Shown here: positions 1 to 1,945 of the stretch, one piece after another
How positions within the stretch are numbered: position 1 is the stretch's first letter
Layout: every line of letters begins with the position of its first letter
Assembly (NCBI RefSeq): GCF_003334815.1
Contig: NZ_QOWO01000086.1
DNA length: 3,095 nucleotides
Strand: one strand, 5' to 3'
Source: Escherichia coli
GTDB taxonomy: Bacteria > Pseudomonadota > Gammaproteobacteria > Enterobacterales > Enterobacteriaceae
Position numbers and translations under genes: made by a program
Notes under the pieces: model-generated
Told to the model about the DNA's origin: nothing
The model's input: only the letters and a program-made list of their open reading frames with translations
The model's database searches: none

Positions 1-378
1 AATCGCTCCCCTGCGGCGACTCTTGTCATAAGAGTGCCGGAGCGTTTTTCCATCAATTGCAATGACGTCTTTATCATCTGAAGAATGGCAGTCACGCATC
101 CAGTTAATAAAGCACTCGTGAAATTTTGCAGGACTGATACAGGATACAACTCTGGCAATGGTATCGTGAACAGGAATACCATTTTCAAAATCACCATATT
201 GCTTCAAAAAATCGGGATGTGTTTCCCCAAAATCCTCTATATCTTCCCAGCCTTCTGCACCAGAAATAACGGCACAAATAGTCAACAGTAGAATATCCGA
301 TAACTTATGTTCCATTTTCCAGGCTTGTCTGTAATCGGGGATAATAGAAATATGTCCCATCAATTTTTTAAGTTCCAT
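1..378 (-). CDS. ISAs1-family transposase (H-repeat-associated protein), N-terminal 126 codons; the rest of the gene lies beyond the window start
   Basis: Absent from the ORF track because there is no stop in the window. ATG at 378-376 is preceded by AAGGAG (plus 385-390) with a 6-nt spacer, and the frame is open to position 1. My hand translation: [126 protein letters not shown]. This is colinear with the N-terminus of the 862..1608 ORF at about 60% identity by hand alignment. It matches my memory of E. coli H-rpt (YhhI-type) ISAs1 transposases; not searched. Confidence 0.85.
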
Positions 379-440
379 TTTGTTCTCCTTAATTATGTAA
401 GGAGTATTTGATCATGTGTAAGCAATAAAAAACAGCTTTA
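1..440 (-). mobile_element. ISAs1-family (H-repeat) insertion sequence, copy A, partial; the upstream boundary near 440 is approximate
   Basis: Contains the transposase start (378) and about 60 nt of upstream leader. The leader shares a TGATCAAA-containing block (plus 407-414) with the leader of the second copy (plus 1652-1659). Terminal inverted repeats could not be defined by eye. Confidence 0.55.
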
Positions 441-463
441 GGTAATAAGGAATATCTCAATTT

Positions 464-1608
464 TTAAACATAAAATGCGAATTGTTTAGTACAAAAAGTG
501 AACTTCTGATGATCTTTCCCTGTGTTTAACGCAGCCTTCTTTCTTTTCCTCTTCACCCTTAATGTCTTTGCAATCTCTTAATAAATTCAGTGCCATCTTC
601 TTTATTCCAGATATTATTTAGGCTGCGTTTCCTCTTCTTATCCGGCTGGCATCTTCATTCATTTTTACATCTAACACCCAATGAAGACTGTGCTCGATCA
701 GCCAGTGCGCTCTGATAGCATGTGCAAATTCTTTAGCATCCATATCCTTTGATGAAATATAATATCGGATGCTTACACCTTCTGCTGATTTATCTTCTTT
801 CTTCTGCCTGAATGACAATGCTACACAAAGCTTTTTTAATCCCTTCCATTCGAATTCAAAATCACAAAAGTTCAGGCGTTACGTTACTGACAATATGCAA
901 ACGTGTTTCTTTTCTTCCATGACTTATCTCCTGCGTACTAAACGAATCGCCTTTATAATTAGAAAACACATTTACAGGAAATTTTTCCTCGAATGCATGA
1001 TGTAATTTCCCCTGATTGCCTTTTACTGCCAGAAGATAATCTGCTTTTTTATCTTTGATCTTCGAAGCGATATCTTTCTGACAGCCCATAGCATCAATGG
1101 TTATCAAATTTTTCTTTAAATACAGTAGGTTAAGCAACTCTGGAATGGCTGTAATCTCATTACTTTTGGCTTCCGTTTTCACCTGCCCCAGTACAACACC
1201 ATTTTCGTTCGAGAATGCACTCACCATATGGATTGCTCCTTTTCTTTTTCCCTTATCAAAGGAGCCTCTTATGGTCTTTCCATCTATTGCTATAATTTCA
1301 CCATCAGTGATTTCATGGCACTCCTGCATCCATTCAATAAACATCTTTTCAAAGGCCAAACTGTCAATGTTACTCACAACGCGTGCAATGGTGTCATCGA
1401 CCGGAATGCCATTATCAAAATCACCATATTTCTTTAGCCATTCAAGTCTTTCATGTCCAAAATCTTCAATTTCCTGCCACTCATCGGCACCTGCAATTAC
1501 TGCACATACGGTGAGAAACAAAATAGCAGATAATTTATGTTTAACCTTTCCTTGTTGTCGTATATCAGGGGTCACTGAAATATAATCAAGCAGACTTTGA
1601 ATACTCAC
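464..1608 (-). pseudogene. ISAs1-family transposase (H-repeat-associated protein), disrupted: +1 frameshift near 861-864, in-frame TAA at 618-620, second frameshift near 555-560
   Basis: Track ORF 862..1608 (248 aa, MSIQSLLDYISVTPDIRQQGKVKHKLS...) is the N-terminal two thirds; the start is GTG at 1608 with AAGGA 6 nt upstream. After TPELL the protein continues in the +1 frame as [25 protein letters not shown]...[29 protein letters not shown] (track ORF 618..818, whose reported M is a TTG). This is interrupted by TAA at 618-620 where homologs have Glu. The same frame then reads IISGIKKMALNLLRDCKDIKG. A further frame change gives VKRKRKKAALNTGKD... and a stop at 464-466. Total span is about 381 codons, matching a full-length ISAs1 transposase of roughly 378 aa (length from memory). 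Confidence 0.8.
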
Positions 1609-1683
1609 CTGGCGTCCTTTTTTATCTTTTTAGTTATTCCAAAGGTTAAATTTTGATCACCTGTAGGCGTTAAAGCAAAGATG

Positions 1684-1709
1684 AAAATCGTGATTTACAT
1701 CACAATTTT
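1684..1709 (-). repeat. Imperfect inverted repeat / hairpin (11-nt arms, 4-nt loop); candidate weak terminator for the rhs-immunity transcript or an IS-end structure
   Basis: Plus strand reads aaaatcgtgat-ttac-atcacaatttt. On the minus-strand RNA the arms AAAAUUGUGAU / AUCACGAUUUU pair fully with one G:U wobble. It lies about 80 nt downstream of the small-ORF stop (1790) and about 75 nt upstream of the copy B transposase start. The stem is AT-rich and the U-run is inside the stem, so it is weak as an intrinsic terminator. Confidence 0.2.
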
Positions 1710-1789
1710 CATGATCTTGCCCTGCCCCGTCCCTTGCTCTCATGTCTTTCTGTATGTATTTTATATTTTTCTCTTTCTGGTGTTGTTCA

Positions 1790-1945
1790 TTATGACCATT
1801 TACCAATCCAGTCAAAAACTTCATTTTTCAAATTGTTATCATAATAATCAACATCATAATAGTCTCCATAATTAATTATTTTATAACTAGCCTTCTTGTT
1901 TTTATCACTAAAATACACCCGTTGTTTTGTAGCGCAGAACTCCAT
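1790..1945 (-). CDS. Small hypothetical protein (51 aa from ATG 1945; 62 aa if GTG 1978 is used); status uncertain, possibly a frameshifted 3' extension of the immunity gene
   Basis: Track ORF 1790..1978; the reported M at 1978 is a GTG. Internal ATG at 1945-1943 is preceded by GGAG (plus 1949-1952, 3-nt spacer). Peptide MEFCATKQRVYFSDKNKKASYKIINYGDYYDVDYYDNNLKNEVFDWIGKWS. It is AT-rich like the neighbouring immunity gene and I see no family resemblance. Confidence 0.3.
   Translation of the reverse strand: MEFCATKQRVYFSDKNKKASYKIINYGDYYDVDYYDNNLKNEVFDWIGKWS

Follow-up and report, generated by a model that had tools for sequence, protein, structure and literature searches.

The ydcC end of an H-rpt element and its truncated ISEc26-type neighbour in the Escherichia coli RhsE locus

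Introduction

The DNA analysed here is a 3,095-nucleotide stretch of E. coli (assembly GCF_003334815.1, contig NZ_QOWO01000086.1; hereafter the window), and it raises the question of how two related insertion elements came to lie side by side next to the tip of an Rhs element. An initial annotation, made from the letters alone, had noted an open frame starting at position 378 that runs off the end of the window and was absent from the list of open reading frames. It assigned this frame to another transposase of the ISAs1 family (H-rpt), with the decayed copy next to it lying in the same direction, regarded the two as distinct family members rather than a recent duplication, and suggested that the site had been targeted repeatedly or that one element had inserted at the end of the other. 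Here we identify the frame, locate the ends of both elements (copy A, which carries the frame, and copy B, the decayed one) and weigh the ways in which the pair may have arisen.

Results

Identity of the locus

By alignment, the window is the RhsE locus of E. coli K-12 and the frame is ydcC (b1460). The window matched K-12 genomes with 100% coverage and 99.9% identity, and positions 1-1592 were base for base those of strain J53. From low to high window coordinates, the annotated order is pptA (outside the window), ydcC, an ISAs1 pseudogene, yncO, ydcD and the 3' part of a truncated rhsE; we take the pseudogene to be yncI of K-12. Every K-12 record has ydcC, which has been an annotated gene for decades, and the gene, the adjoining pseudogene and the link to RhsE all stand in the standard K-12 annotation and are already known. 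For sequence below window position 1 we relied on K-12 genomes nearly identical to the window, in place of the source of the window itself. The loci compared were those of an MG1655-type genome (L001), an O157-type genome (L002), ET5 (L003), F3398 (L006) and J53 (L007), and junctions were counted over 5,426 complete genomes.

The window carries two private differences, both outside ydcC. One is a 1-bp deletion in ydcD, where positions 1992-1996 are a run of five A residues compared with six in the MG1655-type (L001), J53 (L007) and O157-type (L002) loci; it splits ydcD, which encodes 160 aa in K-12, into ORFs of 100 aa and 62 aa. None of the best-matching complete genomes listed shared this deletion, which could be either an error of sequencing in the homopolymer or a frameshift private to this genome. 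The other is a silent substitution at 1593, in codon 6 of copy B, where the plus strand of the window reads G; the base is A in K-12 and J53, and A also in ISEc26. Within ydcC, window base 163 is A, as in J53, and G in the aligned MG1655-type locus.

The open frame at the window edge

The features of this part of the window were as follows.

1-378, minus strand: first 126 codons of ydcC (translation, NF033564 match, PGAP annotation)
385-390, minus strand: Shine-Dalgarno sequence AAGGAG, 6 nt 5' of the ATG at 378 (direct reading)
385-404, minus strand: 7-bp hairpin CUCCUUA-CAUAAU-UAAGGAG, with the Shine-Dalgarno sequence in its 3' arm (scan and minimum-free-energy fold)

What had been reported of the frame was borne out on every point. 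Direct reading of the minus strand gave an ATG start codon at 378-376 and, 6 nt ahead of it, AAGGAG at 390-385; translation from 378 to 1 yielded 126 codons with zero stops, the frame being still open at the window edge. It is absent from the ORF list because the ORF lister omits ORFs that run off an end. The 126 aa inside the window matched the NCBIfam model NF033564, 'ISAs1 family transposase', with 128.5 bits (E = 2.9e-37); this is an equivalog model for ISAs1 with a curated cutoff of 70, and the match is far beyond chance. The part of ydcC in the window covers the greater part of the DDE_Tnp_1_assoc domain and reaches the first of the candidate catalytic residues, the aspartate D108, in the motif IAIDGKT. 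A further 252 codons lie past window position 1, as read from the near-identical genomes. Premature stops in this remainder had been named as a possible objection, and the frame was free of stops to 378 aa in the nearest genomes; ydcC was intact, with 378 codons, in the J53, MG1655-type and ET5 genomes.

Several further searches gave no additional feature. The whole leader of copy A folded no better than shuffled sequences (z = -0.89), the promoter scan of positions 1-1800 returned 3 sites against 6.0 expected by chance, and a scan of the whole window at the Rfam gathering threshold found no RNA family. A promoter candidate at 420-392 on the minus strand, 5' of ydcC, was rejected, since its transcription start would fall at or after the Shine-Dalgarno sequence. 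Two plus-strand ORFs antisense to ydcC (85-291 and 307-411) had no NCBIfam match at E <= 1 and were treated as chance. The hairpin at 385-404 may mask translation on transcripts that read through from copy B.

The YdcC protein

Full-length YdcC (378 aa) scored 411 bits against NF033564 (E = 3e-123; cutoff 70). Two Pfam domains were matched, PF13808 (DDE_Tnp_1_assoc) at residues 9-94 with E = 6e-33 and PF01609 (DDE_Tnp_1) at residues 102-343 with E = 2e-29. Acidic residues were examined in an alignment of YdcC with eight relatives from E. coli, Aeromonas, Salinivibrio, Xenorhabdus, Enterobacter and Streptomyces, with identities down to 29%. D172 and E306 were invariant in all nine sequences, and D108 was present in eight, with E in the ninth. 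From their positions, D108, D172 and E306 are inferred to be the candidate catalytic DDE residues; D108 alone of the three lies inside the window. A search of PDB sequences with YdcC found no relative.

Synonymous and nonsynonymous differences numbered 8 and 4 between J53 and ET5, and 3 and 8 between ydcC and yhhI, counts that are too few for a call on selection. The ET5 gene carries D15N at an otherwise invariant position. In one MG1655-type genome (L001:5242-6378) residues 198, 219 and 225 are T, E and I, as in yhhI, and in J53 (L007:742-1878) and ET5 they are N, A and M; the T198/E219/I225 pattern looks like gene conversion between H-rpt copies.

Boundaries of copy A

The ends of copy A were placed from the breakpoints of genome alignments, from the comparison of inverted repeats and from an empty site.

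508-522, minus strand: left inverted repeat (IRL) of copy A, CAGGGAAAGATCATC (breakpoints, inverted-repeat comparison)
379-522, minus strand: the 144 untranslated bp at the left of copy A, IRL included, up to the start codon of ydcC (alignment with yhhI)
L001:5232-5246, outside the window: right inverted repeat (IRR) of copy A, CAGGGCAAGATTACG (breakpoints and empty site)

Copy A spans L001:5232-6522, is 1291 bp long and is 98.8% identical end to end to the yhhI element downstream of rhsB. The history of the H-rpt elements and the figure of 1291 bp are in part general background; the length was re-measured here. The left end, L001:6522, is window position 522, and the matches of many other genomes break at query position 143/144, which is window 522/523. 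The right end lies about 770 bp beyond the window: breakpoints fell at query 231-233, within 2 bp of L001:5232, and genome 14EC020, which has no Rhs island at this place, is homologous to K-12 only up to L001:5231. The stop codon of ydcC is 10 bp from the IRR end. The window thus holds the left 522 bp of copy A, that is, the IRL, the 144-bp leader and one third of ydcC. In K-12 the element sits between the Rhs tip region and pptA, and in F3398 it follows an intact vgrG-rhs module.

ISAs1 elements are about 1.2-1.5 kb long in ISfinder. In form, copy A is such an element, with 1291 bp, a single long ORF and short, imperfect terminal inverted repeats. Each of the testable defining features of the ISAs1 family and of H-rpt was found: the model score, the pair of domains, the acidic triad, the form of the element and the link to Rhs. 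Taken from sequence comparison, copy A is a complete ISAs1-family H-rpt element of the ISEc1/ISEc5 type. The names given by PGAP are ISEc5/ISEc1-type for copy A and ISEc26-type for the intact relatives of copy B.

Checks for inverted and direct repeats had been proposed, and the IRL and IRR were located at the ends of copy A as given above. Direct repeats flanking copy A were looked for and none was found, the flanks reading ...gcgttaaaca / element / ggcattattg....

Copy B, a truncated ISEc26-type element

523-1724, minus strand: copy B, yncI, an ISEc26-type ISAs1 pseudogene (99.1% identity to intact 1305-bp ISEc26)
1708-1724, minus strand: IRL of copy B, CAGGGCAAGATCATGAA (16 of 17 positions match the IRR of intact ISEc26, CAGGGCAAGAGCATGAA)

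The intact 1305-bp ISEc26 used as the reference comes from O157-type strains. The 248-aa ORF of copy B (862-1608, minus strand) matched the NCBIfam ISAs1 model with E = 1.7e-87. Against the intact element, its frame is damaged by a +1 insertion at 870, a nonsense codon at 620 (E330*) and a 5-bp deletion between 559 and 558. There is a further +1 insertion in the leader at 1623, and the last 98-100 bp are lost, IRR included.

The PGAP pseudogene for copy B runs to 464, which takes it 59 bp (464-522) into the IRL and leader of copy A. This happens because the shifted frame stays open there by chance, and the stretch 464-522 is an annotation overrun, not real ISEc26 sequence. At the other end of copy B, a perfect 14-bp hairpin stands directly behind the IRL (1681-1712, minus strand) and has no counterpart in copy A. 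The 145-nt leader of copy B folded much better than shuffled sequences (z = -3.66). The hairpin may be a read-through terminator of ISEc26 or a protein-binding site. The annotated gene for the small protein YncO (1690-1875, plus strand) begins within the IRL and leader of copy B, reads outward and is antisense to the 3' end of ydcD; it accompanies the end of ISEc26 in the O157 locus too.

Divergence of the two copies

The two elements both lie on the minus strand and are directly adjacent, as had been described. The earlier figure of about 60% protein identity to the decayed copy proved close: we obtained 57% over 126 aa, ungapped, against the N-terminus of the 248-aa ORF, and 58% over 373 aa when full-length YdcC was aligned with the intact ISEc26 transposase. 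At the DNA level copies A and B were 67-68% identical, and each was 99% identical to a different reference, copy A to yhhI/ISEc1 and copy B to ISEc26. The view that they are distinct family members and not a recent duplication is upheld by these values and by their different named IS types; near-identity of the two copies, which would have spoken against it, was not seen.

The junction and its distribution

521-523, strand unspecified: junction of the copy A IRL with the truncated 3' end of copy B (2 bases, CA on the minus strand, common to both)

Copy B lacks its final 98-100 bp, and the point at which it stops coincides exactly with the outermost base of the copy A IRL. Microhomology at the junction was limited to the 2 shared bases, which is compatible with chance. 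The missing right end of ISEc26 was absent from the 15-kb locus, and the DNA past the IRR of copy A is the pptA leader.

When the locus was compared among related strains, as had been advised, copy A was found without copy B in ET5 and F3398, and in both the junction between IRR and pptA was identical to that of K-12. To the left of the copy A IRL, these two genomes have a spacer, a solo 15-bp IRL and an IS1 fragment, and F3398 also has an intact vgrG-rhs-immunity module. The spacer, solo IRL and IS1 fragment lie at L003:3144-3330 in ET5 and at L006:8610-8810 in F3398; the solo IRL reads CAGGGAAAGATCATC, and the spacer, which is about 150 bp long, had no match in the other loci compared. In O157 strains the left flank of copy B (yncO, ydcD and the Rhs fragment) recurs with about 98% identity at another chromosomal site, next to yafV, and is joined there to an intact ISEc26. 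In the O157-type locus (L002:2403-5245) the block by yafV is a second copy of the series Rhs fragment-ydcD-yncO-ISEc26, in which ISEc26 is intact and ydcD is annotated as frameshifted.

The junction of pptA with the copy A IRR was present in 2365 of the 5426 genomes, at 96-100% identity, and the junction of copy A with copy B in 2181 of them. The exact truncation point of ISEc26 is common to about 2,200 genomes, and the intact right end of ISEc26 was found in only 310, O157-type in every row listed. That so many genomes carry the same cut points to a single old rearrangement.

Discussion

Origin of the pair

We consider it very probable that ydcC marks the left end of a complete resident H-rpt element whose dead ISEc26 neighbour was cut in one old rearrangement, and that the pair is the product neither of duplication nor of simple nested insertion. 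The comparisons above suggest that copy A, fixed in position and inherited vertically, would be the resident of that end of the RhsE element which lies towards pptA, and that copy B, a dead ISEc26-type relative, would have arrived with the Rhs tip-ydcD block. A single old rearrangement would then have removed the 3' end of copy B and joined the IRL terminus of copy A to a point inside ISEc26; the aligned junctions point to such an event, with its breakpoint at the copy A IRL. Its likeliest cause would be transposase-mediated joining at one end, or an adjacent deletion, a suggestion that comes from the geometry of the junction alone, since the junction is precise at the end of an IS.

Other histories of the locus have to be set beside this one. 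Had an ISEc26 copy been in place first and copy A jumped into its right end, the boundary would be expected where it was found, at the outermost IRL base and within ISEc26 sequence, and to this extent the proposal that one element inserted at the other's end holds. A simple insertion is nevertheless unlikely: the remaining 98-100 bp of ISEc26 are missing on the IRR side and across the 15-kb locus, copy A is without flanking direct repeats, and a second event, a deletion with its end precisely at the IRR, would be needed. Moreover, copy A did not arrive inside copy B, because strains with copy A alone show the same IRR-pptA flank. Repeated targeting, in which two ISAs1 elements entered a preferred site by the Rhs tip separately, draws on a pattern that is real, for several Rhs elements carry an H-rpt element at their distal end (yhhI after rhsB, and ydcC after vgrG-rhs in F3398). 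Here we regard it as quite unlikely, however, in that copy B is incomplete and lacks its IRR, no target duplications were found, and yncO, ydcD and the Rhs fragment stay with the copy B type of element at about 98% identity even at a different site, by yafV, in O157 strains. The retention of the ydcD block there implies that the unit which moves or recombines is a larger block containing copy B, and the retention of its left flank makes independent targeting by copy B unlikely.

The two remaining alternatives concern the copies themselves. Same orientation, direct adjacency and membership of one family are what would be expected if one element had recently been duplicated in tandem and one of the copies had then decayed, but 67-68% DNA identity, 57-58% protein identity and separate references at 99% have already refuted this origin, which retains next to no probability. 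It is also very unlikely that copy A is itself a remnant, with its frame broken past position 1 in the window's own genome and no second functional transposase gene. The private changes of the window (the 1-bp ydcD deletion and the substitution at 1593) and the pseudogene state of the F3398 orthologue would fit such a break, but window positions 1-1592 are identical to those of J53, where the gene is intact, as it also is in the MG1655-type and ET5 genomes. One old rearrangement at the end of a resident copy A is therefore the reading that we retain.

Activity and mobility of copy A

By analogy with other DDE insertion sequences, YdcC would bind the imperfect terminal repeats, CAGGG(A/C)AAGAT..., and then cut and join the ends. 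An intact gene in K-12, the expected acidic residues and both inverted repeats in place are compatible with activity. Counted against it are a position that is fixed across thousands of genomes and the fact that the orthologous ydcC is a pseudogene in F3398 (O157-type). No target-site duplications were found at the ydcC, yhhI or ET5 copies, so this mark of recent mobility is missing from them; its absence bears on recent mobility and not on membership of the ISAs1 family. Text searches on H-rpt returned passing mentions only. One paper states that H-rpt elements have not been seen to transpose (PMC3032704). Transcripts of ydcC and ybfD were increased in long-term stationary phase, and the two were called putative transposases of unknown function (PMC4032248).

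Meaning of the arrangement

The identification as such carries little weight, ydcC and both elements, as named IS types, being already known. The useful yield lies in the exact ends of the elements, the defects catalogued in copy B and the reading of the pair as one old rearrangement at an IS end. A further idea is that the IRL of the resident H-rpt element serves as a working breakpoint for the swapping of Rhs tip and immunity cassettes. Three different contexts are found to the left of copy A, each joined to it at the IRL terminus or no more than 160 bp away, and the IRR-pptA side is fixed in more than 2,300 genomes; even so, we hold the idea to be improbable. If it were true that the breakpoint at the IRL reflects H-rpt activity, this would bear on the exchange of Rhs toxin tips, with an ISAs1 transposase (YdcC or a paralogue) catalysing the one-ended joining or deletions that remodel Rhs toxin loci.

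Comparison with known systems

The closest known system is H-rptB/ISEc1, the yhhI element downstream of rhsB in K-12. It resembles the ydcC element in its 1291-bp length, its terminal repeats and its 378-aa transposase, and the two are 98.8% identical in DNA from end to end, with 5-8 amino-acid differences between the proteins. Each is found distally on an Rhs element, and neither has target duplications. They differ in their neighbours (yhhJ for yhhI, pptA for ydcC), in the PGAP label (ISEc1-family for yhhI, ISEc5-family for ydcC) and in a few substitutions.

Intact ISEc26, as found by yafV in O157:H7-type strains, is like the ydcC element in family, architecture and orientation relative to ydcD, and is the parent type of copy B, at 99.1% identity. 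It differs from the ydcC element in sequence (58% protein identity to YdcC and 67-68% identity in DNA), in its length of 1305 bp, in its 390-aa transposase and in the strong hairpin behind its IRL. More distant relatives are ISAs12 of Aeromonas, ISKpn31 and ISPa60, which share with YdcC a single ORF, the two Pfam domains and the conserved acidic positions at 29-50% identity; in contrast to the ydcC element, they are carried on plasmids and have no link to Rhs.
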